Source: an uncultured virus (IMG/VR IMGVR_UViG_3300031088_000603) (taxonomy: Duplodnaviria > Heunggongvirae > Uroviricota > Caudoviricetes). From it: 64,000 bases of DNA. The DNA lies in IMG/VR virus record IMGVR_UViG_3300031088_000603; one strand, 5' to 3'. A program made the position numbers and the translations under genes. The notes below the pieces were generated by a model. It saw nothing but the letters and a program-made list of their open reading frames with translations, had not been told where the DNA came from and searched no databases. Below are positions 9,588 through 53,865 of this stretch, piece by piece (position 1 is the first letter of the stretch; every line of letters starts with the position of its first letter).

Positions 9588-10108
9588 GTGGGCATTTTGG
9601 TGCTAAGCCTTGGTCTGATGAGGTGATTGAAAAGGCTGACCATCCTGTACCTCGTCCTCGGACCATCAAGCAGCGTCAGCCGTATGGTGACATCATCACG
9701 ATGGAGCAGATTACGCTTGGTAACTCCTATCTCGCCACCATCAGGGTTCTCGCTGAGCAGACTGATGTGACTGTAGGTGAGGTCGCATTCGCACTCAGCC
9801 GTGACGACAGCATCCTTAAGGGAATTGGCAAGCCAGGTCATATCCCTTCGGGGTTCCCCAACTACCTCAAGAACATCAGGTTGTATAGCCGACCGTATGA
9901 GGGTCTTGCTCTTGCCTCATTCTTCTTCGGTATCCCAGTTCATGCGGCTCACGAGTTGGTGGAGATGGCAGCAAGCAAAGGTGAGGGTTACGATGAAATC
10001 GCTGCCGTTGTCGCCAGGATTGGATACAGCTACAGAAAGAGGCTGGTTGCGGCAATCGGTCATGATGTGGATGTCGAGTTGCTGGGTCATCTCAGAGGCG
10101 CAGCTTGA
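9584..10108 (+). CDS. NDID-tail family protein
   Basis: VTVGEVAFALSR; C-terminus IGHDVDVELLGHL. Confidence 0.7.
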   Translation: MSGHFGAKPWSDEVIEKADHPVPRPRTIKQRQPYGDIITMEQITLGNSYLATIRVLAEQTDVTVGEVAFALSRDDSILKGIGKPGHIPSGFPNYLKNIRLYSRPYEGLALASFFFGIPVHAAHELVEMAASKGEGYDEIAAVVARIGYSYRKRLVAAIGHDVDVELLGHLRGAA

Positions 10109-10139
10109 CGTTCTATAGATTGTTTCGTATCATGGGAGT

Positions 10140-11240
10140 ATGACTTCAAACGAGACTAGCGCGCCTGTGCTGAAAACTGGCGACTTCGCGATCTCCTACA
10201 ACAAGAAGCATGACCGCATCAGCCTCCTATCCGATGACGGCGACTTCGCTGTTGAGGTCGAGACCGGTAGCAAGGCTGAACTTCGATTCCGACGAACCCT
10301 GGTTCGCAATGGTGTGATTGAGCCTGTCGCGCTTACCCTTTTCAATGACATCGAACTGGTTGACGCACCCAACCGATCCATCGATGCTGCCCTCGTCAAT
10401 GATGACCGACCCATCGCTTCGGCAGTCAACATCAACTTCTTCAAGAACCTGTTCATCCCTCACCAGGACGATGTTCGCTACTGGCTAGTCACGCAGAACG
10501 TGGCAGATGAGATTCTTGATGAGGTGATGAATCTCATGTCTACGCTCTCGAATAAGCAGCGCTATGCCGATGCCACTGACGACAACATCAAGCGGTTCGT
10601 CGAGATCCTCCTGTGGGAGAACTCGTACTTTGAGAGCGATATTGGTCTTGCCTGCTTCGATGGTCGCAACCAGTCCAAGCTCATTTCCGGCTCCACCGTG
10701 CGAGATGGTAAGCCCGTCACCATGCTCGACCTTTGCTTCATCACGCACGTATTCCGGGATGAGATGGACTGGTCAAACGTCACCGTTGCTGAGCTTGCAT
10801 TCGCTCTTGGGCGCAACAAGTCGCTGTTCAACTACGTGAAGAGCACGGGTAATTCAGGCAACAAGAGCAGCACGAAAAGTGATGCAGCGATGCGTTTTGT
10901 CACGCTAAAGCAGTTCCGTGCAGTCACCAATAACAACTCGGCATTTGCATGGATGCTGTTGAGCAATAAGGCTGGTGAGGACGCAGGTCAGGCGCGCGCC
11001 AAGCTTGTTGATCGTGTACGCCGGGACGCTGAGCGTCGTCTAGCCCGTGATGCTGTTCGTGGTGCTTGTAAGATGGTTGCAAAGGAGTTCGGCTTCGACC
11101 ATGCAGAGGCTATCTTCAACCAGAAGCACACCTACTTCACGGCGGGGATCATCTTCCCCGACTACATCATCAATGGGGTGCGGGCTGACCTCGACGTGGA
11201 TATCCTGCTTGCTATCCACGGTACGGAGCTACCCTCATGA
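10140..11240 (+). CDS. NDID-tail family protein
   Basis: VTVAELAFALGR and AFAW; C-terminus VRADLDVDILLAI; leaderless start behind a TTGACG promoter. Confidence 0.75.
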   Translation: MTSNETSAPVLKTGDFAISYNKKHDRISLLSDDGDFAVEVETGSKAELRFRRTLVRNGVIEPVALTLFNDIELVDAPNRSIDAALVNDDRPIASAVNINFFKNLFIPHQDDVRYWLVTQNVADEILDEVMNLMSTLSNKQRYADATDDNIKRFVEILLWENSYFESDIGLACFDGRNQSKLISGSTVRDGKPVTMLDLCFITHVFRDEMDWSNVTVAELAFALGRNKSLFNYVKSTGNSGNKSSTKSDAAMRFVTLKQFRAVTNNNSAFAWMLLSNKAGEDAGQARAKLVDRVRRDAERRLARDAVRGACKMVAKEFGFDHAEAIFNQKHTYFTAGIIFPDYIINGVRADLDVDILLAIHGTELPS

Positions 11241-11752
11241 GCATTGAGTCAATGTATATCTCGCACAGTACCCCCGAAGAGTACCGGGGTAGGAAGCTTC
11301 CAAAGGGGCAGTTCTCGGAGTGGCTTTCAGCGTTCCTTGACACCGAGCAACTACCCCGTTGGATTATGTTGCAGTGGTTCGACACGGTAGGCGACAAGGG
11401 CATCATCGATGACTTTCTCTACCGCAACTCGTGGGTCATTATGGACAAGATCAAGTCACGTCATGACTATGGCATGGTTCGTAATGCACAGTCGAATGTC
11501 GCGGTGAACCTCCGATGGCACAGGCGCGAGATTGCTAAGGTTGACTACTATCAGCGATTTGAGGGCGAATCCTTCATGGTCACGGTGATGTGTTTTGCCG
11601 GTGCTCCGCTGGAAAAGGTTCTCGAACTACAGCGACTGGGAATCGATAAGGTATTCTCTCTGTTTGTGAGGAAGATCCCCATCGATGACATCGCGGGATT
11701 CCTAGAGAACGATATCGACCTTTCTCTCATTGAATCGCTCCGGGAAGGGTGA
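11237..11752 (+). CDS. NDID-tail family protein
   Basis: C-terminus FLENDIDLSLIESLREG. Confidence 0.75.
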   Translation: MSIESMYISHSTPEEYRGRKLPKGQFSEWLSAFLDTEQLPRWIMLQWFDTVGDKGIIDDFLYRNSWVIMDKIKSRHDYGMVRNAQSNVAVNLRWHRREIAKVDYYQRFEGESFMVTVMCFAGAPLEKVLELQRLGIDKVFSLFVRKIPIDDIAGFLENDIDLSLIESLREG

Positions 11753-12752
11753 CGTTTTGGATGATGGCATCCCATACCTAGGGCGCAACAGGTCCGTGAA
11801 TGGTCGCGGCACGCTAGCGCTCATTGGTGGTGCCAGGATGAGGTCTGAGCTTCGGATGCTTGTCGAAAAGAAAGACAATGCTGCTAGGGCGCTTGGCATC
11901 TCAACTGAGCAGATTGACACCTTTGTCTCTTATTGGGGAGAGATGCTTGGTGCCTTTGCCGATGACACTAAGAACGACCATCCCAATGACTGCTCAGGGC
12001 AATTGGGTGAAATTAGGGTGGGGTCGGATAGAGTCGGCAGTGTCGTCATTTTGGACGTGCTGAACCTCGTTGACATCATGTGCGTAGTCTTCCCACAGAT
12101 GAGGTTCGATCCTCAGTGGGAGATGCAGGAGGTGCGGTGTGACAGGTGCTATGAGACCTTTACTGCGGCGATTGTCGAAGTGGACTCGCTTCCTCCTATC
12201 ATGGATGCATTCAACAAGGATGTCCCCGTGTGTGCATTTACGCTATCGACGGTCTACAGCAATTTCGCTGGGGTCTTCTCTGCGCTACGGAAGATCGATA
12301 TCAGCAACGAGGATGTCACCCGCGCCATAAAAGACCTCACAGGGGCGCAGGTGGCTTCTGAGCCGTACTTTGGCTCGACGTGGGTGCCGACAACATGGGG
12401 TGCTCAGTATGGTGGGTTATCAGCTTTGCGAAAGATTAGACGGCATCTTGAACTCTGGAAGAGCAATGGCGCTTCTGATGAAGTTGCACTGATGGCTCTC
12501 TTGGTTGAGTGCATTATTCACCAAGGTGACGTGGAAAGCGCGGTGTGGTCATTCATCACTAAGACGCTAGCTGACCCCGATGAGCGAGCGAGGTTCATGT
12601 ATGAACTCGACAAGTTCCACTCCATCTGGCAAAGAGAGACCCCTGAGCCAGAGATATCCGACGACCGGCTACGTAGGTTCGCTCGGGCGTATGAATTCGG
12701 TATCGATTTCGGTATCTTGAATGAACTTAGCGGAGAACGCTACGTATCCTAA
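11730..12752 (+). CDS. NDID-tail family protein with CxxC (start uncertain); paralogue of 47546
   Basis: VRCDRCYETF; WKSNGASDEVALMALL; C-terminus YEFGIDFGILNEL. Confidence 0.65.
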   Translation: MNRSGKGDVLDDGIPYLGRNRSVNGRGTLALIGGARMRSELRMLVEKKDNAARALGISTEQIDTFVSYWGEMLGAFADDTKNDHPNDCSGQLGEIRVGSDRVGSVVILDVLNLVDIMCVVFPQMRFDPQWEMQEVRCDRCYETFTAAIVEVDSLPPIMDAFNKDVPVCAFTLSTVYSNFAGVFSALRKIDISNEDVTRAIKDLTGAQVASEPYFGSTWVPTTWGAQYGGLSALRKIRRHLELWKSNGASDEVALMALLVECIIHQGDVESAVWSFITKTLADPDERARFMYELDKFHSIWQRETPEPEISDDRLRRFARAYEFGIDFGILNELSGERYVS

Positions 12753-23512: not shown

Positions 23513-25453
23513 TCATCCTGTCGTGATGCTCTTACGGTATTCCTCAGCAACTGGCTTTTCTACGAAGTCGAAGACGTTCACCTTATGACGCTTCAAGACT
23601 TCGAGGACGGCGCTTGGTGAGGTGTAGAAGAACTCCTTGCGCTGGTTGATCTTGTTCACTCGATCCTTGGCGAATGCGTCATGCAGCAACCCTTCCAGAG
23701 CTACCGCGTCATCAGAGAAGACGATGGTGTGCACATCGAATCTGAATGGGACCGATGCGTCTCCCAGTTCGAGCACTCGCTCCATTGGGTCAAGCCTTCT
23801 GGTCATGCCTATCTTGACGACCCGTTCACCGAATGCGCCGATGTTGGAGATGACGTAGACGTAGCCTGCCCGGGTATTCGCTGCTCTAAAGTCAGTCTTC
23901 TTGATCTCGCTGCCAACTTCTTCGAGCTTGCCTTGTGCTTCTTCTACCTCGCGCTGCTTATCGATGATGGCTTGCATGTCCTGGTGTTCACGGCGGGCAT
24001 CAGCAAGCTCTTTCTCCAAGCGTCCGAGTACGTTTCGGTAGTGAGACTCTTCCTTGGCGAGTTTGTCCTTCTGGACCTTGATCTCGGCTTCGACCTTTGC
24101 CTGTTCACGGATGAGTTCTTTCCTTTCCCGCTCGGCATCTCGTTCTGCGTCCAGAGCCATCCGGTACTGCGCCGCGAGCTTGATTTCCTGCTCTCGCAAG
24201 GTGATGTACCTACTGGCTATCCGAAGGTCGAGCATCTTCCCAAAGGTCTGAATCTTGTCAGCAGTCGCACGAAGCTTCTTGATGGATGGTTCCGGGTTAC
24301 CCCTGGTGCTCTTAGTGAGGTTCATCGCCTCCGTGTTGAACATGTTCAGAGCGAGCTTCTCGATGGACCGGGTGAACTTCAATCCCTCTTCCGATGAGTT
24401 GTTGAAGACCATCGGCGTGCAAGTGGTCGCCTTCTTGTCCTTCACCACCTGCTTGATTTTCTCCTTCAGCGTTTCGAGCTTAGCTTTCAGAGCAACGGAG
24501 TTCTCAGCAGGGTGTTCATAGTCGATGAGACCGGATTCGACGTAGAGGGTTTTCTCGTCGAGAAGGGACTCGATACTGCGAAGTTTCAACTGCTTGCTCT
24601 TGATAGCCCTATCGACTTCATGCCATTCATGCACTCCCTCGATTGCTGCTACGAAATGGTTGAACTCACCCTCCTTGCGGACTATCTCACGGTCGAGGTC
24701 TTTTACTTGCCTGGTGAGACCTTGCACGTTGATGCGCATTTCGATGAAGGAACCGATTTCCGCTCCTTCGCGGAGGTATCTGTCGATGGAATCTTGACGG
24801 TGAGCTACTTCCGCACGGAGGTTCTCGATGTCATAGCTCAGCCCTAGACGCTCCTGTACGGCGTTCAAATCGGTACTAGCTGCTTCCAGTTCGTCCAGCA
24901 GCCTATTCGCCTGCTCTGCGATACCACGGAACTGCTCACTCTTGCTACGGAGCTTACCCGTCGTTAGGAACATCGGCACCATGAGTTCTCGGTCTCGGAG
25001 CGCTTGATGCTTCTTCGCCATCTTCACGGCGGTCCTGTCTGCGTCTTGTGCCAGTGCCAGATGAGCGGGGATGCCTTGTTCGATGACTGACTGCGGTATC
25101 TCGTCAACCGTGCGTGGTGCGTGTACCTCGGTAGCGATGACTTCACTCGTCATCTCATCAGCTTCAGCTTCAGCTTCGACTTCGGATGAGATGGTGCCCT
25201 CCGGTACAGACGGAATCCGTTCTGGCTCTTCCTGTACCGCGCTCTCCGGCTCTGTAAGGACTTCTGCGCCTTCTCGGGTGCTCACGTCCTCTTCGACGCG
25301 CTCAGGGGCGCTGACGGCTTCCACTTTGGTATCCACTAATGCCGGTGATGTCTGTTCAATGGGAGTGACATGGGATGTCCATGCGGTTCCATCCCACCAT
25401 CGTGCTTGGGTGGCATCGGTCGGGTCGGGATACCAGTTGGCGGAGGCGGACAT
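23513..25453 (-). CDS. DUF2510 + coiled-coil + DUF4041 + T5orf172 (GIY-YIG-like) domain protein
   Basis: ANWYPDP..RWWDGTAWT; RAGYVYVISNIGAFGERVVKIGMTRRLDP..ELGDASVPFRFDVH..RKEFF. Confidence 0.9.
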   Translation of the reverse strand: MSASANWYPDPTDATQARWWDGTAWTSHVTPIEQTSPALVDTKVEAVSAPERVEEDVSTREGAEVLTEPESAVQEEPERIPSVPEGTISSEVEAEAEADEMTSEVIATEVHAPRTVDEIPQSVIEQGIPAHLALAQDADRTAVKMAKKHQALRDRELMVPMFLTTGKLRSKSEQFRGIAEQANRLLDELEAASTDLNAVQERLGLSYDIENLRAEVAHRQDSIDRYLREGAEIGSFIEMRINVQGLTRQVKDLDREIVRKEGEFNHFVAAIEGVHEWHEVDRAIKSKQLKLRSIESLLDEKTLYVESGLIDYEHPAENSVALKAKLETLKEKIKQVVKDKKATTCTPMVFNNSSEEGLKFTRSIEKLALNMFNTEAMNLTKSTRGNPEPSIKKLRATADKIQTFGKMLDLRIASRYITLREQEIKLAAQYRMALDAERDAERERKELIREQAKVEAEIKVQKDKLAKEESHYRNVLGRLEKELADARREHQDMQAIIDKQREVEEAQGKLEEVGSEIKKTDFRAANTRAGYVYVISNIGAFGERVVKIGMTRRLDPMERVLELGDASVPFRFDVHTIVFSDDAVALEGLLHDAFAKDRVNKINQRKEFFYTSPSAVLEVLKRHKVNVFDFVEKPVAEEYRKSITTG

Positions 25454-25693
25454 AGCTATACCTGTCTGTAGGGTCATCCTCAGTATCCCGTACGAATACA
25501 ACCCATCAAGGCTTTACTTGCCTCTCTGCCGCAATTTGTCCCCTCCCTGACCCCTGACGTGACCAACGAAGCTATAAAGCTATAGTCCCCGCTCCACCTG
25601 CTCGTTCTCTTACTCCAAGCCCGCAGAACGGCGTACAGCGCTTCAGACAAAGAGGCGGGGTTACCCAGTTCCCTGAATAACCCCGCCTGTGTC

Positions 25694-28228: not shown

Positions 28229-29098
28229 TTAGCGTTCGATACCGGTTCGTGCTTCAACGTAGTCACAGATAAACGTGTCGAGAGCAATGAGCCTACGGTC
28301 GTTATCCCAGTCGAGCACCCCTTCTTCTAAGCAGAAGTCGTAGCCTTCTGCTGTCTCGTTGCTGACAAATGCTTCCTTGTCGTAAGCATCAGGGCGGTAT
28401 TCGTTCGGTAGGGAATCATAATACTCAATGATCTTTTTGCCGCTGAACTTGTTGTTGGTATCGATAAGAGTAACAGCCACTTCACTGGATACGTTGCCCT
28501 CGGTGAGTGCGATGAGGTCTTTGTCGCCGTCTTCCTTGTCTAGACCGAGGATCTCTTTGAGAGTGTCGTTGTTATCGACAGCCGTGATGAGCGCCTTCCG
28601 TCCGGGCATGAAAACATCTATCGGGTCTGGATGGTCTTCGATGGAGTACACGTACGCTTTCAATGCGCCAGGTAGATTGGAGGATAGACCAAGCTCGTCA
28701 TTGACAGCATCCTGAACTCTCTGCACACTCAATCGACCGCCGTCTTGCGTAATGACGGTTTTGCTGATGATTTCACTTTTCCCGGAGTCGAAGTCGAACA
28801 GACCACCAAGCTCCTGGTTGAGGGTATAAAGCTTGTGTCCACCCTCGCGCACCCATTTCTTGAGGTCATAGCCCTCGCTACTGAGTCGGAATTCAACAAC
28901 GTTTCCGCGTTTGACATCGCCTGTCTCGACGCGCTTGCGTAGTTCTTCTTGTGCTGCTGTGCTGCTCGGTGTTGATGCGGCAAACCTGCTGATGTTGAGG
29001 CGCTGACGTGCCTTGGCGGTGAGTTCATCTTCACGCACCATTCTGGTGTACTGGTTGCCGTTTACGTCAACACCGATTTTTGTTGTGAGGTTGGACAT
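28229..29098 (-). CDS. DKNG-variant leader protein, tandem paralogue of 29135
   Basis: IGVDVNGNQYTRM; GNVVEFRLSSEGYDLKKW shared with 29135. Confidence 0.75.
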   Translation of the reverse strand: MSNLTTKIGVDVNGNQYTRMVREDELTAKARQRLNISRFAASTPSSTAAQEELRKRVETGDVKRGNVVEFRLSSEGYDLKKWVREGGHKLYTLNQELGGLFDFDSGKSEIISKTVITQDGGRLSVQRVQDAVNDELGLSSNLPGALKAYVYSIEDHPDPIDVFMPGRKALITAVDNNDTLKEILGLDKEDGDKDLIALTEGNVSSEVAVTLIDTNNKFSGKKIIEYYDSLPNEYRPDAYDKEAFVSNETAEGYDFCLEEGVLDWDNDRRLIALDTFICDYVEARTGIER

Positions 29099-29134
29099 GT
29101 GGAGCCTTTCGTAGTTGGTGTTCTGGGTTGGGTG

Positions 29135-29902
29135 TTAGAGAGATTCGCTGTATACGCGACCGTAATCGACAACGAATTTCTTTATTGCGAGTTCCTTGAA
29201 GAAGGGGGTAGGAGCACCACGCGGGACTGTTGATTGGTACTCGTAGGGAAGCTGCTCGAAAGCCTTGTTGAATTCGGTGCGATTTTCCTCGGTTGAATTG
29301 AGGAGATTGTTTCGGTAATTGCCGGTCGGGTCATGTTGGAACAGCTTCGTTTGACCTTCATCGGTGTCAGCGCCAATGAAGTGAGCAAGCGCGGTGTGGT
29401 TTTCGACATGTTCGAGGATTTCGTGGTCAGCCATAACGAAATTGTCGTCACCGGGTTTGATAGGCTCGATGTTGGTAACTGCAACGTCGAAGTAATCCTC
29501 GGGGTCGGTGATACCGAATGCGCTTTCAAAGCGCTCCTTGACATCCTCAACGTCACCAAAGTCATCATTGAGCGACTGAGGAATACGCCATACGATCTCG
29601 TTGGTAGAGTCATTAAAATCCACCGCGCCTCCCAGTTCACGACTGAGTTCTTGAAGGCTTAGTCCCGTTGCCCACTTGCGGAAGTCGTAAGTCTCACTAC
29701 TGAAGGACAGTTCGACAACCTCGCCCTTGTAGACCTCGCCACGCTCCAAACGGTTGAGGAAAGTGTTGGTGTTGATGTCCTTCTTGACATAGCCATCGAG
29801 CGACAGGATGCTGCGCTTGGTCTCCAGCGCGTCAGGACTTATCATCCTGGTGTATCGTCTGCCGTTCTTGTCGATGCCTGTCTTGGGTACGAGGTTCGTC
29901 AT
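29135..29902 (-). CDS. DKNG-leader protein
   Basis: TGIDKNGRRYTRM; GEVVELSFSSETYDFRKW. Confidence 0.75.
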   Translation of the reverse strand: MTNLVPKTGIDKNGRRYTRMISPDALETKRSILSLDGYVKKDINTNTFLNRLERGEVYKGEVVELSFSSETYDFRKWATGLSLQELSRELGGAVDFNDSTNEIVWRIPQSLNDDFGDVEDVKERFESAFGITDPEDYFDVAVTNIEPIKPGDDNFVMADHEILEHVENHTALAHFIGADTDEGQTKLFQHDPTGNYRNNLLNSTEENRTEFNKAFEQLPYEYQSTVPRGAPTPFFKELAIKKFVVDYGRVYSESL

Positions 29903-29951
29903 TGGTATGCCTTCCGTTACTCAATGGTACCGCACACCACAGATATAGGCT

Positions 29952-30341
29952 TTGACACACCTATTTCCAAGCCAGATGTTTGACGAAGATAGTACCGAGT
30001 GTTATCGTTCCCGTCATGACATCCCCTTTCGCTCCCCAAAGGCTCATGTAGTCATGCTGACTGTCCGATTTCGAGAGTACGCTCCTGTTCGCGGAGTGAC
30101 CTGGCAGAGCATCTCTTACAACGAGGTAACGATGGTTCGGATTCTTACCGACGATGGTGCTATCGGAACTTGGGTAGGTGATTCGCAGATGTTCTATAAC
30201 GCCACTAAGACGGTGGGCGTTCTTCACACGTTTGAAGTCACCGCCAGTGCCTCTGAGGTGAAGAAGCTCCGCAAGGGTAGGGTTACCCGTGCTTTGAAGG
30301 ATCGACTGAATCGCACTCACAAGGTAGAAAGTAACAGCTAG
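29952..30341 (+). CDS. hypothetical protein, paralogue of 31029 (start uncertain)
   Basis: VRFRE..LRKGRVTR resembles IHFRE..LREGRVSR. Confidence 0.6.
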   Translation: MTHLFPSQMFDEDSTECYRSRHDIPFRSPKAHVVMLTVRFREYAPVRGVTWQSISYNEVTMVRILTDDGAIGTWVGDSQMFYNATKTVGVLHTFEVTASASEVKKLRKGRVTRALKDRLNRTHKVESNS

Positions 30342-30379
30342 GACTTGCGCAACCGCGAGAGGGGTGCTATTGTTCTAGT

Positions 30380-30570
30380 AACAGCCACTGTTAGGTTGAA
30401 CTCCTCGGTCCTTAGGGACTAAGCCGCAGGCACGTTAGACATGCTGGACCACAACGACTACTCATTGGGTAGTTATTACATGCATAGAAGGTTTCGAACC
30501 CTCGCGGCAACGTGAAAATCCATGGAATGCATGTAATTAAGAGCCACTCTTCGGGGTGGCTCTTCGTCTT
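30380..30570 (+). ncRNA. candidate structured RNA (~190 nt)
   Basis: TTGCGC-N17-TATTGT promoter; 11-bp helix ATTACATGCAT/ATGCATGTAAT enclosing a TTCGAA loop and a GCAA tetraloop; cUUCGg terminator. Confidence 0.55.
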
Positions 30571-30592
30571 TAACGGATAACCGCTTTGCTTT

Positions 30593-30946
30593 GTGTACCA
30601 TATGCGGATGCATGCAGAATTCCGTCGCTACCAAGCTCACCAGGGTGTCTACTGGGAGAGCATTAGAGCGGACACTGCTTTCTTCGTACGCTTCGTCTCA
30701 GCCCGTGACAGTATTTCGCCGTGGGTGGCGTACCCCACTGATTTCGAACGTGACTTAGAGGTGGACAGGACAAGCATCAACGAGAGGTTCCCGTTGAGCA
30801 ACCGCGCGTTAGAACGCATGTTGAACGATCATGTTCCTATCTCTGTTCGACGCGAGGCGGAGCGCATTCATCGAAGGCTCAACAAAGATCACCGGTTCTC
30901 TATCAAGGCTCGGAAGGGTCGCATCAAGATAATCGGTGAATTGTAG
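30593..30946 (+). CDS. basic hypothetical protein (start uncertain)
   Basis: ORF only. Confidence 0.55.
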   Translation: MYHMRMHAEFRRYQAHQGVYWESIRADTAFFVRFVSARDSISPWVAYPTDFERDLEVDRTSINERFPLSNRALERMLNDHVPISVRREAERIHRRLNKDHRFSIKARKGRIKIIGEL

Positions 30947-30999
30947 AAACCCTACAACAGATCCGGTATTTCTTTGTAGGTATCCTACAAAGTGTATTT
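30941..30999. repeat. double-palindrome site, copy 2 (inverted relative to 27399-27458)
   Basis: TTGTAG AAACC CTACAA and TTTGTAG GTATC CTACAAA, 33 bp apart. Confidence 0.8.
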
Positions 31000-31028
31000 A
31001 GGCTGAAATCGGGGAGTACCCTTGTTTC

Positions 31029-31634
31029 ATGACAGCGATAAGTCGGTTCCAAGAGCACTGTGGCTCACTTCCTTCGACCAAGTGGCAGACTTTCACTCTG
31101 GGTGATTGCATTATGAGTCGAATGGTCACAAGCGCCGGACCTACGGCATGGAAGAAGCTAGACGAGCTATCTGCGCATCTGCTGCAATCTGACGAAGCGG
31201 GCAATGAATCACCCGCCGCTATCGACTTACCAATGGTGCTCTCCCTTGATGAAGAGTCTGAGCTTCTTCGCGGTTCTGTACCCCGAAACCTCATTCGTCG
31301 AGCAGAGACCAAGATCCGTTCAGGAATGCTCACAGACGGCGGCAGGGCGGTTCCTGTCATACACTTCCGTGAGCAGCGTGAAGAGGGTAAGTTCGCCCGT
31401 GACACCATTACCTTCGAGGGGCGATGCTACATCAGGGTGGTACCTGAGAACGGTACGTGTACACAGTGGAAAGTCGTACCCTCCCAGGAGTCGGCAGTAG
31501 ACCTTGAACTGATCGATGAGTTCAACTGCGTCATCTCCGACTACGATGCTCATGAGCTTCGAGAAGGTAGAGTCTCGCGCGGTGTGTTCAATAGCATCGC
31601 TGAATGCTCTGACACCAAGTCTCTTCGTGTATAG
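31029..31634 (+). CDS. hypothetical protein, paralogue of 29952 (start uncertain)
   Basis: C-terminal similarity to 29952. Confidence 0.6.
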   Translation: MTAISRFQEHCGSLPSTKWQTFTLGDCIMSRMVTSAGPTAWKKLDELSAHLLQSDEAGNESPAAIDLPMVLSLDEESELLRGSVPRNLIRRAETKIRSGMLTDGGRAVPVIHFREQREEGKFARDTITFEGRCYIRVVPENGTCTQWKVVPSQESAVDLELIDEFNCVISDYDAHELREGRVSRGVFNSIAECSDTKSLRV

Positions 31635-31647
31635 CCGTTAACGAAGA

Positions 31648-31679
31648 AGCCCCTCTACCGATAATGTGGTAGAGGGGCT
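31648..31679. terminator. bidirectional terminator
   Basis: AGCCCCTCTACC / GGTAGAGGGGCT inverted repeat. Confidence 0.75.
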
Positions 31680-32142
31680 ACTCTTCAACAAAAGCCTCTG
31701 CTAATGTCGGTGCTACTGTACAATCTAGATAAATTTGACTTATGCGCCTATTTTGCGCCGATTCATGTATTGGTTTACATGTCTCACTTCTCCTTTGGGG
31801 ATAGCCATATATAAGTTGTCAATGATTATTTGCATTCTACGCTGCCCGTTCAGGCTAATGTGCGCTTAGTTACAATGTGAATCACATCGGCTTACTCCTT
31901 CTTGTACCTTTTTATACTCTGCAAATGGGTTTGATATACATTAGATGCGCCGTGTTAGCGCTTTTGTGAATTACGTTGGTATCACATTGGCTTGCTCCTA
32001 TAAAGCGACGAATACTATGTTTGGTTCAATTTTCAAAGATGTGTTACGTCAAATTTTCACTGCGCTGTTGGCGCTGGTAAATCGGGCTACACAGGCTCTC
32101 CTACTTGTTATCTAGCGGCGGTTTCGCCTTTCCTTGCCTACA
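31648..32142 (-). ncRNA. AT-rich transcript carrying four SD + start-stop modules
   Basis: TTGCAC-N17-TAGAGT promoter (32177-32149); AGGAG..GTG TAG, AGGAG..ATG TGA twice, and AAGGAG..ATG TAA at ~100-107 nt spacing. Confidence 0.6.
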
Positions 32143-32243
32143 AGAACTACTCTACACGAAGATGCATTAGTGTGCAAGCTCAAATCGAAAAAAGTTTGAG
32201 AAAGATCAAAGCAGCCCCTCCGGTGTCGAAGGGGCTGCTTTGA

Positions 32244-32603
32244 TTAGTCGCGTGTGAGGTGAGGATGAGCCTCGTAGAAGGCAAGAACCGTCTTCTCAGA
32301 GATGGTGTCGGAGGCACCTTCGAGTAGACCTCGCATGCTTGCCCACACGCGGATGCGGGCGTTGAGGACTGTTGTCCCCGCGTCTACGACGGGCTTCGTG
32401 ACGACTGACTTAGTTGCGCTACCCGCAACTCGATCAGTAACCCGACTGCCCGTTATCCATCGCTGCATGTGACGCTCGAACGTCTTGCGGTTGCGCTTGT
32501 TGAGGTCGATCTCGTAGTCAGTGCCGCCGAAGGAGAAAGTGACAGTCTCGGCTTCACCTGCCCCACCCAGATCGTCAGAGATTCTTACAGTAGTGGTCTT
32601 CAT
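32244..32603 (-). CDS. lsr2: Lsr2 nucleoid-associated protein
   Basis: ISDDLGG..ETVTFSFGGTDYEIDL dimerisation domain and IRVWA..IS..VLAFYEAH DNA-binding domain. Confidence 0.9.
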   Translation of the reverse strand: MKTTTVRISDDLGGAGEAETVTFSFGGTDYEIDLNKRNRKTFERHMQRWITGSRVTDRVAGSATKSVVTKPVVDAGTTVLNARIRVWASMRGLLEGASDTISEKTVLAFYEAHPHLTRD

Positions 32604-32620
32604 TGGTTTCTCTCCCTTTA

Positions 32621-33343
32621 TCAATTAGTGCCCCGCCAGCCCGGAACGAACTCGTCGAGGAACTCACCGTATGCATCGTCCCAACGACGAGTTCCGTTAC
32701 CCTGACTCGCTGTGCGCATCTGCACAAGCCAGCGGAAGTTCATCTTTTCTGCGTTGGATTTAGCGTTCCACGCAGGAAGTCGGTCGTGAGCGTTCACCCA
32801 CTGAACAAAGTCAGCAGCGGCGACATCCCAACTTCTCTTCGTTCCGTAGTACGAATCCTTGGAGTGCCAGTTGGGAATCGATTCGTCGAGCTTCTCGAAG
32901 AGGTCAGCGTATTCCTGAGCAAGAGCAGCACCCCGCCCTCCCTTGGCAATGGTCTGAAGGCGAAGGAGGTGACCATTGAGAACCAGTTCCTCTTCGCCGC
33001 TGGTCTTCTGTTTGCGAGGAAGGGCACCGTGTTGGTTATACCACTCGATGATGGCTGTGACCTTATTCTCACGGTAGGCAGACATGTCATGGTTCTTTGA
33101 CTTCCAGTCCGGCAGCAGGCGATTCATCGTGTTCAGCCTATCTGCGGAGAGCGTTCCTGTTCTATCCGCCATGCGCTGATCACGAAGCCACCGGTAGAGA
33201 CTCTTTCCATGTGTACCGGTTGCGCTTTGCTTCGGGAGATCTCCGTTGTTTTCAATCCAAAGAACCAGAGCGGTGAGCATTTGCTCCCATGTCTCGCCAG
33301 CAGCTTTCACTTTGAGGTTGAGGGGTGTGGTGGGGATAGGCAT
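32621..33343 (-). CDS. helicase-associated (HA) domain repeat protein (about 3 repeats)
   Basis: WEQMLTALVLWIENNGDLPK..LYRWLRDQR..LLPDW repeats. Confidence 0.8.
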   Translation of the reverse strand: MPIPTTPLNLKVKAAGETWEQMLTALVLWIENNGDLPKQSATGTHGKSLYRWLRDQRMADRTGTLSADRLNTMNRLLPDWKSKNHDMSAYRENKVTAIIEWYNQHGALPRKQKTSGEEELVLNGHLLRLQTIAKGGRGAALAQEYADLFEKLDESIPNWHSKDSYYGTKRSWDVAAADFVQWVNAHDRLPAWNAKSNAEKMNFRWLVQMRTASQGNGTRRWDDAYGEFLDEFVPGWRGTN

Positions 33344-33370
33344 GAGTGTGACTTTCTTGGTCTGTAGAGG

Positions 33371-33856
33371 TTACTTCTCGAAGGGTGCGACGACAGCGTT
33401 CACTCGCGCGATAAGGTTTGCGTCGGCAATCTCGTCACGGTTGGTCGTCTGGTACTTCACCCAGCTAGCAAGCGCTCGCTCGGTCTGCTCGGCTGCATTG
33501 ACCTTGGGCGCTCGACCGTGAGTCTCAGTCCACTTGGTGAGCTTGCTGAACGTCCTCTCCCACTGGCGGTCCTGACGCACGACGAAGGCGTTCACATCCG
33601 CAACGGTGGGGTTTTTGTCACTGAGGTACCGCTCGATTCTTGCCGCCTTGCGAGCCGCTACCTCGGCATCCCTAGCCTCTTTGATTGCGATTTTACGAGC
33701 CTCAGCGTCAGCAATGCGCTGCGTCTCGCGTTCAGCGTTCTCTTTACGAAGCTGTGCCCGCTCTTCTGCGGTCTCCATCTTACGTTCTGCTCGCTCGTTC
33801 TGACGCGCGACGATAACCTCGCTGCGGAGGTTGAGCTTTTCAGAGGGGATAGGCAC
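33371..33856 (-). CDS. coiled-coil + single HA domain protein (GTG start, MPIPSEKLNL)
   Basis: WERTFSKLTKWTETHGRAPK..ERALASWVKYQ; N-terminus like that of 32621. Confidence 0.75.
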   Translation of the reverse strand: MPIPSEKLNLRSEVIVARQNERAERKMETAEERAQLRKENAERETQRIADAEARKIAIKEARDAEVAARKAARIERYLSDKNPTVADVNAFVVRQDRQWERTFSKLTKWTETHGRAPKVNAAEQTERALASWVKYQTTNRDEIADANLIARVNAVVAPFEK

Positions 33857-33973
33857 GATGATTCTTTCGCTAGGGTTTGTCGTCTTTCTACATCCTAGCG
33901 TAGATAAACCGAAGTTGCAAACAGCGAAAGACCCCGTGTCTTCAATCGACACGGGGTCTTTCGTCTTACCGAG

Positions 33974-34924
33974 TTAGCGCCACTCGGGGAGGATGCTGGT
34001 GAGAAGTGCCTCACGCTCAGGGGTCCACTTGCCACCCTTGCCGTTCGCGGCGGCACGAGCCTGCGCGAGCCAGATGTACTTTCGGCTCTCGACGGCATCG
34101 TCCGAACCGTAGCGGGGAAGGTGACCGTTCTCCTTCACCCAGTCAGCGACCTCCTGAGCGCGGTCCTCCCACTTGCCACGGGGGATGCGCGTGCCATCAG
34201 CGACGGTCGAAGAACCGCGCCAGCCGGGGGTCTTCTCGTCGAGAAATGCACCGTACTGCTCGTCCCAGCGGTGCGTGCCCGAACCCTTGGATGCCGAACG
34301 CATGTTGATCATCCAGAAGTTGTGGCGCTGCTCATCAGCGTCATCGGTGGGGTAGCGGGGAAGACGACCGTTGGTCTCGACCCAGGCGACGAACTCGGCG
34401 GCAGCCTGCTCCCAGGTGCGGTACTCGCGGCGCTTCTTGCCACGCCACCCGGGCACTCGCTCGTCGAGGATGGCGAGCCGCTCATCGCGGATGCGGATGC
34501 CGTCAGCGGTCGTGGGGTTCATGACCTTCTGGTTGAGTCGCCAGACAGCGAGGTCGTTCTCTTCGCGGTCGGTCTTGCTGCGCTGGGGGAAACGCTCGTG
34601 CTCCGCGACCCAGGTGACGAGGTGCTCCAGGTGGGACTCCCACGTCTGGTAGTGGCGCGACGATGCGGCGCTCTTCGACTTGATTGCGGTGTTCTCGATC
34701 TTGTCGGTGTCGGCGTTCCATCCGGGAACAACCGTGTCGAGGTAGTCGAAGAACTGGTCGGACTTGCTGTCCGTGCTCTGGCGGCTGATCTGGTGAATCC
34801 ACCAGTCGCGGTGCTCCGCGTAGTCGTTCTCCGCACCGGTCGCGGCGTACGGGAGACCGCCGTTGCGCTGAACGAATTCAGCGAAAGAGTCGGCGCTCTT
34901 CTTCCAGGCATCGAATACAGACAT
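33974..34924 (-). CDS. HA domain repeat protein (about 4 repeats)
   Basis: WE..WVxxNGxLPR..W..xR..LDxxxPGW repeats. Confidence 0.8.
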   Translation of the reverse strand: MSVFDAWKKSADSFAEFVQRNGGLPYAATGAENDYAEHRDWWIHQISRQSTDSKSDQFFDYLDTVVPGWNADTDKIENTAIKSKSAASSRHYQTWESHLEHLVTWVAEHERFPQRSKTDREENDLAVWRLNQKVMNPTTADGIRIRDERLAILDERVPGWRGKKRREYRTWEQAAAEFVAWVETNGRLPRYPTDDADEQRHNFWMINMRSASKGSGTHRWDEQYGAFLDEKTPGWRGSSTVADGTRIPRGKWEDRAQEVADWVKENGHLPRYGSDDAVESRKYIWLAQARAAANGKGGKWTPEREALLTSILPEWR

Positions 34925-35024
34925 TTGGGTGATTCCTTTGGCTTAGTGGAGGTAGTGGTAGTTGCTGTGTAATTACATCCTAAACGATAGATTAGGAAAA
35001 CACAAGTCGGCATTACAGGGGACG

Positions 35025-35885
35025 TTATGCTGCGCTTTCGTGCTGCTCATCTGAGTCCTGATGAAGAGCTTTGTTGCGTAGCATGTTGATCTGATTCATG
35101 GTGGGTTCGTGCTTGAAGATGTAGACACCCGAACCATCATCGTTACGCACGGTCTTGACGAAATCAGCAAGGTTGCCTGCATTGTGGTCGTCATCAAACA
35201 AGTTGATTTCTAACGTACCGCGATTCTCACTTCGTTTTGAGACGGAGAAGTGAGCACTGAAGAATCGGTTGGGACTCAACTGCATGGTGACGTAGTTGTC
35301 GCGAATCTGGACAGGATTGTGAAGAGCGAGTGGAAGTTCATCCCCTGTGCTGATGATTGTTGCATCGCTGAGGGTAACGATCTTCTTGTAGTCGAATAGG
35401 TCTTGGAGGAAGGGTCCAAGCTTAGCCTTGATCTTGTCGTCCGCAGTCGCACCCTTTGGGGTCTTGTTCTCCTGAGTAAGCGGTGCAAGAGTGCGGAAGG
35501 TGGCACCGCTGCTCATGTTGGCAGGGTGACGAAGGTAGAGGGACAGGATGTATGACCCTAGGCGGTGATGGTTCTTGGGACTGATGATGGTCTCCCAGTC
35601 GAGGTCCATCGTTGCGAGCTTCTTGAAGATATCGACTCCGGCGCTTTCGATGCGCGACAGGATGTATTCGATACGAACGTCAGCGGTATCGTAGGGAGTG
35701 TAGATGTCATCCTCACCACCGATACGCTTGGCGTTCTTGACCTCCAGCGAGAACTTGTTCGCCTTGCCAGAAACGGTAACGACATTGCACTGGCAACTGC
35801 GCGGGTCTTTGCTTCCGAGCTTCGTCGCGAACTGCGCGAGGTGGAACACCGGCACGTAGTGCTGGTACTGATTCTGATCGGTCAT
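35025..35885 (-). CDS. DUF4238 domain protein
   Basis: N-terminal QHYVPVFHLAQF..IEYILSRIES. Confidence 0.7.
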   Translation of the reverse strand: MTDQNQYQHYVPVFHLAQFATKLGSKDPRSCQCNVVTVSGKANKFSLEVKNAKRIGGEDDIYTPYDTADVRIEYILSRIESAGVDIFKKLATMDLDWETIISPKNHHRLGSYILSLYLRHPANMSSGATFRTLAPLTQENKTPKGATADDKIKAKLGPFLQDLFDYKKIVTLSDATIISTGDELPLALHNPVQIRDNYVTMQLSPNRFFSAHFSVSKRSENRGTLEINLFDDDHNAGNLADFVKTVRNDDGSGVYIFKHEPTMNQINMLRNKALHQDSDEQHESAA

Positions 35886-36129
35886 ACCTAAAGCATATTG
35901 CTGGAAGACTGAATTGTCAATCGGCGCTACTTCTTGGCTGTGCCGTTGTATTCGCTGTTGTACTTCGCAACAGCCTTGCGGACATTACCCGAGACGATGA
36001 TGCTGACAGTCTCATAGACGGTGTAGCAAACCACGCAGATGCTTGCGAAGAAGTAGAAATTGAACACGCGGTTGCTCCTTAGGCAAATCTAGGAGAGATT
36101 ATCACAGACATCTTTGCAGGTTGTGAAAT

Positions 36130-36342
36130 CTAGGCTGGGTCGCTGCCTTGGATGATGCGACGAGGCTCGATAACGAACTCGTAGACCGCTGCCCCGATAG
36201 AACCCACCAGGCAGTAACACGACACGACGAGAGAACCGATCATAAGGGCATCAGTGCTCACCACTCCGAATACCGTGAGCAGAGCGATGGTGATTAGCGC
36301 CAATGGTGCCAATCCAACAAAGATCTTTCCGGTCATGCTCAC
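36130..36342 (-). CDS. small 2-TM membrane protein
   Basis: SD AAGGAGG; hydrophobic sequence. Confidence 0.65.
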   Translation of the reverse strand: MSMTGKIFVGLAPLALITIALLTVFGVVSTDALMIGSLVVSCYCLVGSIGAAVYEFVIEPRRIIQGSDPA

Positions 36343-36403
36343 AATGCCTCCTTAGGCTGGTTTGTGAGCGCTAGTGTCTCACATGTCTAGTGGTGATACC
36401 ACC

Positions 36404-52698: not shown

Positions 52699-53775
52699 TC
52701 AGATTTCGAGTGATGGAAAAATAGTGCCATCCGACTGAATAGTTGCATCTAGTCGTCTCTCCGGCATCAGGTGTGAGTGACCTCCACCAAGGATGATGTT
52801 GGGTATCTCGTCTTTACGTATGCGCGGCTGTGTGAGTGAGTCCGATGCCATGAGTGGGTTGGTGTGCTGACCTGATATAGCGAACGCTTTGTCGTTCTTG
52901 GTGTCGTAGGCGTGTTGACCCAAAACCCTGAGATGGTCTATTTTGCCTGTCGTCGCGAACTCGTGGAGCATGAGAAAGAGCCACACCGTCGTGCGTTCGT
53001 TTCTTCCTAGCCTGACTGGTGTTTCTTTGAGGAATAGCTCGGTGAGTGCGATGTCTGACCATACGAAGATGTCTAGTGCGTAGTCTGCGAGCCTCAGGGT
53101 GGTGCCCACGGTCTTCCAGATGGGCTGCATGAGCAACGGCTGCTGATTCTCCATTGAGTCCCGCACAACGCCTCTGAGAGCTTCTTGGACCATCTCGAAG
53201 GACTCAAAGACCGTCTCTGATGAATGCCAGTTCGATACCTTGCTGTGTGCTGGCGAGAGTATGGACATCAGCCTTGGTCTAGCTTCTCTATATCTCGATG
53301 CGATAGAGAGCGCTTGGTACACGATGGTGTCTGGTCTGATGACTAATTCACTCCCGTACCTGTCTTCGGAAAGCCATGCTGTCGTATGGTCTGGCAGCAC
53401 GGTGAGCTTGATTTCCAAAGCCCTCGTTTGACCCATCGGACTGGATAGGACCAGATCGATACGCGGTAGTGTGTTTGGTACGGCACAGAGGTCGGCGTAG
53501 AGGTTGTACTTGTGCTCGAAGGAGTGCTGAATGCCCGCAAGCTCTGCTCCGAACAACTCCGGCAATGTGATTCGGCTATGCACGAGACTGCCGGTCTGGT
53601 CAATTGCGAGATAGGTGAAGTCCATTCCTTTGTCATGCATGTAGTGAGCAAGGGCGACAGGGAATGCGTTGTTGAACTGATTCTTTCCCCATGATGAGGG
53701 AAGCAAGAAGTCGCGATTGGAGTCGTCGAGTCCGTAGAGCCTGGGGGCTTCTTCCGGTATCTCGAAACGGGACAT
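52699..53775 (-). CDS. HindVP-family type II restriction endonuclease
   Basis: PRLYGLDDSNRDF..SWGKNQFNNAFPVAL, RIDLV, LEIKLTVLPD, GSELVIRPDTIVY, KNDKAFA, ILGGG..L.PERRLDA. Confidence 0.85.
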   Translation of the reverse strand: MSRFEIPEEAPRLYGLDDSNRDFLLPSSWGKNQFNNAFPVALAHYMHDKGMDFTYLAIDQTGSLVHSRITLPELFGAELAGIQHSFEHKYNLYADLCAVPNTLPRIDLVLSSPMGQTRALEIKLTVLPDHTTAWLSEDRYGSELVIRPDTIVYQALSIASRYREARPRLMSILSPAHSKVSNWHSSETVFESFEMVQEALRGVVRDSMENQQPLLMQPIWKTVGTTLRLADYALDIFVWSDIALTELFLKETPVRLGRNERTTVWLFLMLHEFATTGKIDHLRVLGQHAYDTKNDKAFAISGQHTNPLMASDSLTQPRIRKDEIPNIILGGGHSHLMPERRLDATIQSDGTIFPSLEI

Positions 53776-53865
53776 ATTCAAGCCTACCAACTGATAGAGA
53801 GATGACAGCGTTTTTGACTTGCTTTTTGACCTAATAGCGCCTATCATCTGAGCCTCTACAACTGA

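Follow-up and report, generated by a model that had tools for sequence, protein, structure and literature searches.

Four tandem start-stop modules on a probable non-coding RNA of a phage-like or otherwise mobile element

We analyzed a 64,000-nucleotide stretch of DNA from an uncultured virus, referred to here as the window. At 31640-32142 on the minus strand, it probably contains a stand-alone gene for a non-coding RNA about 500 nt long. The RNA carries four modules, each consisting of an SD sequence, a start codon and an immediate stop codon. We tentatively propose that the payload consists of the modules themselves, and that this is a multivalent, ribosome-titrating RNA that would dampen or reshape SD-dependent initiation during expression of the element. 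The element is large and phage-like or otherwise mobile, and its host is probably an actinobacterium. Nearly all of the element's genes are ORFans.

The unit is bounded by a promoter and a terminator. The coordinates originally predicted for the promoter, modules, spacings and terminator were all confirmed on the minus strand. The putative promoter (32149-32177) has a -35 element TTGCAC (32177-32172), a 17-nt spacer and a -10 element TAGAGT (32154-32149), and transcription is predicted from the sequence to start near 32142. The TTGACA-N17-TAGNNT sites that precede genes elsewhere in the window are of the same class. The -35 element matches TTGACA at only three of six positions, and for this reason a scan for consensus promoters did not list the site. 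It is among the 25 sites in the window that fit the looser pattern TTG[AC][AC]N-N16-18-TA[GT]NNT. The intrinsic terminator identified by a terminator scan (31648-31679, minus strand) has a 12-pair stem with eight G-C pairs, and a tail of UCUUCGUU.

The RNA unit is located directly downstream of an Lsr2-like gene (32244-32624, minus strand; Pfam PF11774, 4.5e-14; phrog_1223, 6.6e-17), which has its own terminator hairpin (32205-32244, minus strand; inverted repeat I1). At the other end, the RNA terminator lies 14 nt from the stop codon of a convergent plus-strand ORF of 201 aa (31029-31634). This ORF has a full-length homologue, P0001, with 92% identity. It has no assigned family, and no Pfam, PHROG or usable ESM Atlas match was found for it. 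Between promoter and terminator, the sequence and an ORF scan support the predicted stand-alone unit free of ORFs. The longest ORF on the RNA strand has 31 codons, and the unit has no coding capacity. A gene search of the whole window found no tRNA or tmRNA genes, and an Rfam search of 30500-33500 at E values up to 10 gave four noise matches only.

The unit is also covered by contigs from RNA libraries. Such contigs are found in all three metatranscriptome runs aligned to the window, which belong to three studies; they give neither strand, level nor termini, and RNA libraries may contain DNA. Runs X18-X20, which contained 6% of the sampled words, were left out of the alignment. RNA-library contigs end at 32133 and 32114. 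No such contig covers 32134-32329, whereas a DNA contig continues through this region. These ends near the predicted transcription start are a weak hint for the promoter. The RNA-library contig of run X16 joins 31646 to 31692, omitting exactly the terminator hairpin.

All four modules are on the minus strand. The core of module 1 (32087-32102) reads AGGAG-agcct-GTG-TAG, with a 5-nt spacer between SD and start. Modules 2 (31982-31999, AGGAG-caagcca-ATG-TGA) and 3 (31882-31899, AGGAG-taagccg-ATG-TGA) have 7-nt spacers, and module 4 (31775-31794, AGGAG-aagtgagac-ATG-TAA) has a 9-nt spacer. The start-to-start distances are 105, 100 and 107 nt. The modules thus vary in start codon (one GTG, three ATG), stop codon (TAG, two TGA, TAA) and spacer length (5, 7, 7 and 9 nt), yet every unit consists of SD, start and stop. 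This disfavors a binder that recognizes one fixed sequence. Modules 2 and 3 are identical at 17 of 19 positions (repeat family D1), and AGCC is common to the spacers of modules 1 to 3. When the four units are aligned, the mean column identity is 60%, and Tandem Repeats Finder reported no array. ToxI-type repeats of type III toxin-antitoxin systems, in which an endoribonuclease toxin gene follows nearly identical short tandem repeats in the same orientation, were considered and rejected on account of this column identity, the missing Tandem Repeats Finder array and a downstream ORF that is convergent and matches no family.

The clustering of the modules exceeds chance. The pattern AGGAG-N5-9-(ATG|GTG)-stop has five matches on both strands of the window, and four of these are located at 32102-31775 on the minus strand. 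All four AGGAG sequences in the 503-nt RNA precede a start-stop, and four of its five start-stops, TTG counted, have AGGAG before them. We shuffled the 503 nt 20,000 times at the dinucleotide level: 19,891 shuffles contained no module, 106 contained one, three contained two and none contained three or more. The window-wide total of five is not extreme by itself (200 block shuffles, mean 0.9, maximum 5), and what stands out is how the motifs cluster on one strand, not their total number. At 83 other loci, taken from the surroundings of Lsr2 homologues or from a first motif scan (512 kb, both strands), we found three single matches and no cluster.

The real genes of the element use AGGAG as their SD, too. 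Counting AGGAG 4-10 nt before the start of an ORF of at least 40 codons, 23 of the 119 AGGAG sites in the window precede such ORFs. Because AGGAG and its spacing are the same as in the real genes, the modules resemble the element's genuine ribosome sites. The same observation leaves unsupported the suggestion that the RNA favors the many leaderless mRNAs in the window, as does the promoter scan, in which three of the 25 sites lead into the start codon of a long ORF and one of the three is inside another ORF. The use of AGGAG by real genes also weighs against the titration of ribosomes that we propose, because a general ribosome sink would hit the element's own AGGAG genes too. In addition, a cell has thousands of ribosomes, and very many copies of the RNA would be needed.

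A diverged relative allowed us to examine which parts of the unit are conserved. A metagenome scan with Lsr2 gave 79 loci, and the same element was found in L006 alone, which is 99% identical and contributes one informative change. The relative, a contig of run X17, is about 90% identical over 31734-32114, with 28 substitutions and nine gap letters; one substitution is not among the 35 listed events. None of these 35 events falls within the 72 core nucleotides from SD to stop in the four modules. The probability of such sparing is 6.5e-4 under independent placement, and seven of 381 circular shifts equal it, in a test that uses one relative and has power for modules 1 and 2 only. As the original prediction anticipated, SD, spacer, start and stop are kept in this one relative, and the spacers between modules have changed, by 11% in spacer 1 and 28% in spacer 2. 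Module 2 forms a conserved island, with the nearest changes 1 nt past the stop and 5 nt ahead of the SD. The seven flanking contigs of the relative have 45 changes in 1,018 nt (4.4%), and the 3' half of the unit (31734-31909) has two changes in all. Indels of 1 and 2 nt in the relative disrupt small ORFs on the plus strand. The relatives hold no longer ORFs at the unit, which argues against the modules being decayed genes.

The four units and the different strains keep translational meaning, that is SD, spacing, start and stop, rather than a fixed sequence, which makes the ribosome the most likely ligand. A sequence-specific binder would give the same pattern of core conservation. An unlikely alternative is a ligand other than the ribosome, either a protein of the element or host that recognizes initiation regions or a C-rich regulatory RNA with anti-SD-like loops, sponged by the four AGGAG sequences. 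The layout is multivalent, like that of known sponge RNAs, and the entire cores of 16-20 nt, including the spacer letters between SD and start, are unchanged in the relative. The AGCC shared by modules 1 to 3 and the hairpin that adjoins every core are also in line with such a ligand. However, binding to AGGAG explains neither the correctly spaced start nor the immediate stop in all four units, and a specific binder must tolerate spacers of 5-9 nt and hairpin loops of 3, 6 and 12 nt. A Pfam scan found no RNA-binding family among the 97 ORFs of the window.

Another candidate is that the modules encode tiny peptides or are decaying gene starts. Reinitiation could occur at the inner GUG of AUGUGA (4 codons in module 2, 11 in module 3), the 31-codon ORF could be translated, or the modules could be relics of a duplicated 5' gene end. 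In E. coli, AUGUGA and GUGUGA start-stops can allow reinitiation at their inner GUG (PMC9841429), and both module 2 and module 3 have AUGUGA. The 31-codon ORF (31835-31740) overlaps module 4, but it has no SD before it. The inner GUG is present in two of the four units only. Reading the changes by hand, we found that those at 31981, 31978 and 31977 hit two of the three sense codons of the GUG frame in module 2, and therefore no conserved module 2 peptide is indicated. The start-stops are conserved, not decaying. We regard peptides or gene relics as very unlikely.

Folding predicted two hairpins in each unit, a small one with the start-stop in its 5' arm followed by a G+C-rich one. A 5'-proximal hairpin, GGCG-aaac-CGCC (32117-32128), is found in both the MFE and centroid folds. 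The predicted first hairpins are a UGUGA/UCACA stem in module 2 (31965-31986), a stem of seven pairs with the loop AUU in module 3 (31873-31889) and CAUGUA-aaccaa-UACAUG in module 4 (31764-31781), all on the minus strand like the other hairpins. The earlier proposal that the start-stop lies within the 5' arm is clear for these three modules and ambiguous for module 1. The GCGC-loop-GCGC hairpin that had been noted after three modules is present in module 1 (32062-32074, GCGC-caaca-GCGC, without change in the relative), module 2 (31947-31961, GCGCU-aacac-GGCGC) and module 4 (31744-31758, GCGC-aaaauag-GCGC), and module 3 has an interrupted one (31839-31865).

Several changes in the relatives retain these local hairpins. 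In the second hairpin of module 2, pair 31961/31947 changes on both sides from G-C to A-U in the X17 relative, a compensatory change, and pair 31957/31951 changes from U-G to U-A. In the first hairpin of module 2, the 5-bp outer stem is intact and the three changes fall in the loop or inner extension. In the first hairpin of module 3, a change from C to U at 31877, seen in L006 and run X16, converts G-C to G-U with pairing retained. In runs X17 and X13, the pair 31865/31839 of the second hairpin of module 3 is G-C instead of G-U. The global MFE fold has a z score of -2.7, but X17 has 18 substitutions at positions paired in this fold, and 13 of them disrupt the predicted pair. The relative thus contradicts the long-range helices, and we retain the local hairpins alone. 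In the predicted ensemble, the SD has a mean unpaired probability of 0.71, 0.33, 0.76 and 0.46 in modules 1 to 4, compared to 0.45 for the whole RNA, and the start-stop has one of 0.19-0.45. The SD is therefore predicted to be largely unpaired in modules 1 and 3 and partly paired in modules 2 and 4. The mostly paired start-stops and the partly paired SDs of modules 2 and 4 could lower 30S binding.

The hairpins are also palindromic in DNA. This raises the alternative of a signal at the DNA level, in which the palindromes ATGTGA-T-TCACAT and CATGTA-N6-TACATG would serve as operators, or in which the A+T-rich block would act as an origin or as a nucleation site for the Lsr2-like silencer encoded next to it. 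The RNA region is the most A+T-rich 400 nt in the profile of the whole window and adjoins the Lsr2-like gene; the G+C content is 0.42 in the unit versus about 0.52 in its surroundings. An 18-nt imperfect inverted repeat flanks the unit on both sides (31622-31639 and 32145-32162). However, half-site spacings of 1, 6 and 12 nt are unsuited to one DNA-binding protein, and the change at 31877 retains a G-U pair, which is of the RNA type only. A DNA signal leaves unexplained why AGGAG is found at SD distance, on one strand, in four units, and the unit is covered by RNA-library contigs. Such a signal is highly improbable. A CRP-like reading of the palindromes as TGTGA-N6-TCACA was ruled out, as the spacings are 1 and 12 nt.

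To our knowledge, all start-stops described so far are scattered single sites, each of which affects its host gene only slightly. Meydan et al. (2019; 10.1101/520783) report that single E. coli start-stops with an SD, such as those in yecJ and hslR, bind ribosomes in toeprinting and Ribo-RET, and that 14 such cases are nested in genes and tune the host ORF by about 16%. Start-stop minimal ORFs are also found in C. jejuni (PMC11955535). Like the modules, the sites of Meydan et al. have an SD-like sequence, a start and an immediate stop, and no peptide is possible. The modules match them in both respects: GTG-TAG, ATG-TGA, ATG-TGA and ATG-TAA are preceded by AGGAG at 5, 7, 7 and 9 nt. Unlike the E. 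coli and C. jejuni sites, which are single and within genes, the modules are four conserved sites on a dedicated promoter-terminator unit free of ORFs. The next gene is convergent, and there is no downstream ORF to tune.

Comparisons with Csr/Rsm sponge RNAs and with the lambda bar minigenes had been suggested; they hold only as analogies, and the defining features of both are missing here. CsrB and RsmZ are dedicated non-coding RNAs with a repeated short purine motif containing GGA, and multivalency is the working principle they would share with this RNA. In Csr/Rsm RNAs, GGA is located in hairpin loops and the ligand is CsrA. Here, AGGAG is predicted mostly in linkers 5' of the hairpins, the motif is a full SD with start and stop at ribosomal spacing, and the ribosome is the presumed ligand. 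The Csr/Rsm covariance model gave no match in Rfam up to E = 10, and actinobacteria, as far as we know, lack CsrA. The bar minigenes are mini-ORFs with an SD on a mobile element; bar perturbs translation and encodes no protein. Their action depends on a sense codon after AUG, followed by peptidyl-tRNA drop-off. The four modules have no such codon, and only fMet could be released.

SASs, the Start-Associated Sequences of Cluster K mycobacteriophages, are repeated, extended AGGAG-containing motifs 3-7 bp before starts, with a function described as unknown and thought to be initiation-related (PMC3203893). These actinobacteriophage SASs resemble the modules in their repeated motif, but they precede real genes, which the modules do not. 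The SAS motif is the 13-mer GGGATAGGAGCCC with up to two deviations. When up to three mismatches are allowed, it is absent from 31640-32177 and has five matches elsewhere in the window, compared to 13.4 expected by chance.

Ribosome-bound SDs are also used to stabilize RNA. As far as we know, such stabilizers need one 5'-proximal site, not four at even spacing. In B. subtilis, initiating ribosomes at a strong SD of hbs mRNA block RNase J1 (PMC5737220), and mycobacterial katG mRNA is stabilized by a polypurine sequence and translation initiation (PMC2358910). As with STAB-SD and hbs stabilizers, initiation complexes stationed at intervals of ~100 nt would keep 5'-end-dependent RNases away from an A-rich RNA that is otherwise untranslated. 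Ribosome loading would then serve only for protection, and the payload would be elsewhere, for example in the near-invariant 3' half. We consider protection of this kind improbable. The 5' hairpin and the terminator hairpin of the RNA are typical stabilizing ends, and the 3' part at 31734-31881 has only two changes in the relative. However, no payload was identified in the form of an Rfam match or ORF, and the modules are the sole conserved islands of the variable 5' half, which fits better with the modules as payload. STAB-SD, hbs and katG elements resemble the proposed modules in that their SD binds a ribosome or 30S subunit for a purpose other than making protein. Each of them is a single 5'-proximal element on an mRNA, whereas here the start-stop array is four-fold, periodic and without a coding part.

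We return to the modules as a ribosome-titrating payload. From the features described above, we infer that the RNA binds ribosomes, is occupied by them and has a physiological effect. Each of the four diverged tandem units, 100-107 nt long with a start 5-9 nt from the SD, would capture an initiation complex that is unable to elongate and can only release fMet and recycle. One RNA could thus hold as many as four parked ribosomes at intervals of about 100 nt. A more specific and rather doubtful version is a 'ribosome trap' of an actinobacterial mobile element, in which the four start-stops would each lock an initiating ribosome, together with fMet-tRNA and a release factor cycle, on the non-coding RNA. 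The element might in this way throttle or re-program SD-dependent translation of the host, or protect the anti-SD end of 16S rRNA against attack. We know of no bacterial or phage RNA with this mode of action.

Selection has kept four start-stops and little else, and the start-stop therefore looks like a working part and not like noise or damage control. The array is a clean natural substrate for studying the behavior of a ribosome that is parked on AUG-stop. If titration of ribosomes is what the RNA does, this would be a new means by which a mobile element controls translation in its host, and it would offer a compact tool to tune ribosome availability. If ribosomes only protect the RNA, it would represent a new stabilizing design for long non-coding RNAs in Gram-positive bacteria.

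We also searched for similar arrays. A literature search in which most subscription journals were outside the range found no start-stop array on a non-coding RNA and no ribosome-sponging phage RNA. A blastn search with the unit and with 28500-36400 gave no match among 50,697 phage records and 72,556 plasmids. In IMG/VR, the Lsr2-like protein found two relatives with 34% identity, both without modules, and the 201-aa protein found none. Array searches of the databases were limited to two-module patterns. The core pattern AGGAGYAAGCCRATGTGA has three matches in IMG/VR, none with a second module. A protein scan of GTDB genomes found nothing, and the two-module DNA pattern gave three chance single-module matches there, in Rikenellaceae, Clostridiales and cyanobacterial MAGs, two of them in long open frames. 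A generic two-module pattern matched 27 IMG/VR loci, with no analogue of the array among them. Twelve of these loci matched via TGG only and do not have two true start-stops. The other 15 have two true start-stop modules; all are inside fully open reading frames, indicating that they are coding repeats.

The RNA gene is an ORF-free unit of about 500 nt on the minus strand (window 31640-32142). The upstream Lsr2-like gene ends at 32244, and a hairpin with 18-nt arms (inverted repeat I1, 32244-32205) lies directly 3' of it. The promoter is composed of a -35 box TTGCAC (32177-32172), located 17 nt before the -10 box TAGAGT (32154-32149). Just past the predicted transcription start, the RNA is predicted to form a 5' hairpin (32128-32117). 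Four modules follow, each with a Shine-Dalgarno sequence (SD), a start codon and an immediate stop codon: m1, AGGAG-N5-GTG-TAG (32102-32087); m2, AGGAG-N7-ATG-TGA (31999-31982); m3, AGGAG-N7-ATG-TGA (31899-31882); and m4, AGGAG-N9-ATG-TAA (31794-31775). Their start-to-start distances are 105, 100 and 107 nt. A terminator with 12 pairs and a U-rich tail was found by terminator scan at 31679-31648. The entire gene is flanked by an 18-nt imperfect inverted repeat, I2 (83% complementary), with one arm just past the terminator (31622-31639) and the other overlapping the -10 box (32145-32162); this repeat could be a cassette boundary or chance.

The longest ORF in the unit has 31 codons. The RNA contains 35% A and 43% G+C, compared to about 52% G+C in the window. 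The four units align poorly (mean column identity 60%), and Tandem Repeats Finder detected no array at this location. Despite this, m2 and m3 are identical at 17 of 19 positions over the SD, spacer, start and stop (repeat D1), and AGCC is common to the spacers of m1-m3. This suggests that the units arose by tandem duplication long ago and kept their cores. In the predicted ensemble, the SDs of m1 and m3 are mostly free of pairing (mean unpaired probability 0.71 and 0.76, respectively), and those of m2 and m4 are paired in part (0.33 and 0.46). A short predicted hairpin holds the start-stop in its 5' arm, with 7 pairs in m3, 6 in m4 and 5 plus an extension in m2; the assignment in m1 is ambiguous. 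Each unit has a second, G+C-rich predicted hairpin, GCGC-loop-GCGC in m1, m2 and m4 and interrupted in m3, and ends with an A-rich spacer.

Motif counts bore out the predicted array of SD-led immediate start-stops. The strict motif, AGGAG-N5-9-(ATG or GTG)-stop, occurs five times on both strands of the whole window, four of them in the RNA unit, where every AGGAG precedes a start-stop. When the 503-nt sequence was dinucleotide-shuffled 20,000 times, 19,891 shuffles contained no module, 106 one, three two and none at least three. Block shuffles of the window gave a mean of 0.9 motifs and a maximum of 5, so the total of five alone is not extreme. The signal is the clustering of the modules. Only three isolated matches and no cluster were found in 83 other loci (512 kb, both strands counted), which were fetched around Lsr2 homologues or from a first motif scan. 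The fifth motif in the window, AGGAG-N5-GTG-TGA (12127-12142, plus strand), is isolated inside an ORF (11730-12752).

Of the words sampled from 29000-35000, 6-9% are present in each of six metatranscriptome runs from leaf litter or the phyllosphere. Three of these RNA runs (X15, X16 and X17) and one DNA run were mapped onto the window, and contigs from each RNA run fall on the unit: 31888-32133 in X15; 31822-31985, and 31549-31646 joined to 31692-31834, in X16; and 31734-32114 in X17. No RNA contig from these runs covers 32134-32329, and a contig from the DNA run spans 31639-32547. Two RNA contigs stop short of the predicted transcription start, by 9 and 28 nt, a weak hint in agreement with the promoter. 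The joint in X16 omits exactly the terminator hairpin (31647-31691), with 5 letters common at the joint. We interpret it as an artefact of copying through a stable hairpin in the RNA; it could also be a natural deletion variant. Contigs from RNA libraries do not reveal strand, transcript level or true ends, and such libraries can contain DNA; transcription of the unit is likely. An element acting at the DNA level is a rival reading that we regard as highly improbable.

Comparison with relatives indicated which parts of the unit are constrained. The 100-kb metagenome contig L006 is the same element, 99.0% identical over 29247-32607. It has one change in the RNA unit, at 31877, which converts a G-C pair in the m3 hairpin to G-U. 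Over 381 nt, the X17 contig shows 28 substitutions and 9 gap letters and represents a relative at about 90% identity; 27 listed substitutions and 8 indel events were analyzed, one substitution being unlisted. None of these 35 events falls within the four cores, which run from AGGAG through the stop codon and total 72 nt (P = 6.5e-4 under independent placement); just 7 of 381 circular shifts are equally event-free. The test relies on one relative, whose contigs possibly mix strains, and is informative for m1 and m2 only, since the 3' half (31734-31909) has 2 changes in total. Within this scope, SD, start and stop are kept while spacers diverge, as the original prediction anticipated. Events cluster in the spacers, with 23 over the 82 nt of spacer 2 and 10 over the 87 nt of spacer 1. 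At m2, a block of 22 nt is free of change, the nearest changes being 1 nt past the stop and 5 nt before the SD. The X17 flanks differ at 45 of 1,018 positions in seven contigs (4.4%), indicating that the spacers evolve faster, and the cores slower, than neighboring genes.

The 1- and 2-nt indels in X17 would frameshift small plus-strand ORFs, and two of three sense codons are changed in the four-codon inner GUG frame of m2. On these grounds, and with its short ORFs, the unit is non-coding. It matches no known RNA family in Rfam. A decayed gene was rejected, as the start-stops are the conserved part of the unit rather than lost. That the modules yield tiny peptides or are gene relics is very unlikely. 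Compared to the global minimum-energy fold, the 27 listed substitutions comprise 9 unpaired, 5 pair-keeping and 13 pair-breaking changes. Among the pair-keeping changes, the double change at 31961/31947 (G-C to A-U) and the one-sided changes at 31951 and 31839 all fall in the second hairpins of m2 and m3. The pair-breaking changes are nearly all in long-range helices or helices outside the module hairpins. On this distribution the global fold was rejected and the predicted local hairpins were kept.

The units retain SD, spacing, start and stop, while the choice of start codon and stop codon and the length of the spacer differ between them. This pattern suggests that the modules are read by the ribosome. 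In E. coli, ribosomes bind single SD-led start-stops in vivo as well as in vitro, and the sites slightly lower expression of their host genes (10.1101/520783); similar sites are listed in C. jejuni (PMC11955535). At each unit, a 30S subunit would bind first, and a 70S would then form with fMet-tRNA on the start and the stop in the A site, leaving termination and recycling as the sole outcome. The 100-107-nt period would provide space for four ribosomes and the two hairpins between them. We tentatively favor the modules as the payload: the RNA would be multivalent, binding ribosomes as they initiate and drawing them away, a reading we hold at somewhat below even. Bound ribosomes might serve only to stabilize the RNA; we consider this unlikely. 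A non-ribosomal binder of initiation-region look-alikes is judged equally unlikely.

The unit matches bacterial start-stop sites in sequence definition but is not nested in a gene, which is their context. It lacks the defining features of Csr/Rsm sponges, bar minigenes, type III antitoxin repeats and Cluster K SAS. Neither a start-stop array on a dedicated RNA nor a ribosome-sponging phage RNA was found in the literature, of which coverage was incomplete, and two-module patterns found no analogous array in IMG/VR or GTDB, so the array may be confined to this lineage. We rate as new the arrayed and autonomous form of start-stops, a known feature. Ribosome titration, if true, would be a categorically new mechanism.

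The upstream gene is Lsr2-like (PF11774, 4.5e-14; phrog_1223, 6.6e-17). Directly upstream of it are three consecutive genes with helicase-associated domains (HA, PF03457; 32621-34924, minus strand). Relative to the window, L006 carries about 1.4 kb extra (L006 1592-3003), inserted between 32625 and 32607 immediately upstream of the Lsr2-like gene. Part of this insert is 81% identical to the 5' portion of the gene, so the insert probably holds a second, tandem Lsr2-like paralogue. Downstream, a 201-aa plus-strand ORF converges on the terminator. Its full-length homologue (92% identity) argues that it is real, and the RNA would then be a stand-alone unit, not a leader.

Promoter-like sites TTGACA-N17-TAGNNT recur upstream of window genes, a type we take to be actinobacterial. 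With Lsr2, this makes the host probably an actinobacterium. The RNA had been proposed to favor leaderless mRNAs. This was not supported: the element's genes commonly use AGGAG (23 sites 4-10 nt before a start opening an ORF of at least 40 codons), and strict leaderless candidates are few. Two candidates, 10105-10142 (plus) and 35920-35883 (minus), open ORFs of 366 and 286 codons; both have a TTGAC[GA]-N17-TATNNT promoter-like site with ATG 6 nt past the -10 box.

Pfam matches at E ≤ 0.001 were obtained for 9 of 97 window ORFs scanned. They include T5orf172/DUF4041, YitT, HindVP endonuclease, PASTA and DUF4238, and no translation- or RNA-related family. Almost every window ORF lacks a Pfam or PHROG match, and the same 90% protein clusters occur on contigs of 128, 637 and 805 kb, which points to a very large element or to part of a chromosome from a lineage not yet sampled. 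The HindVP-type restriction endonuclease gene is at 52699-53997 (minus; PF09519, 5.5e-111). A 662-aa protein (23513-25501, minus) contains DUF2510, DUF4041 and T5orf172 domains, and its best tblastn matches, with 41-47% identity, come from phages of Mycobacterium and Corynebacterium.
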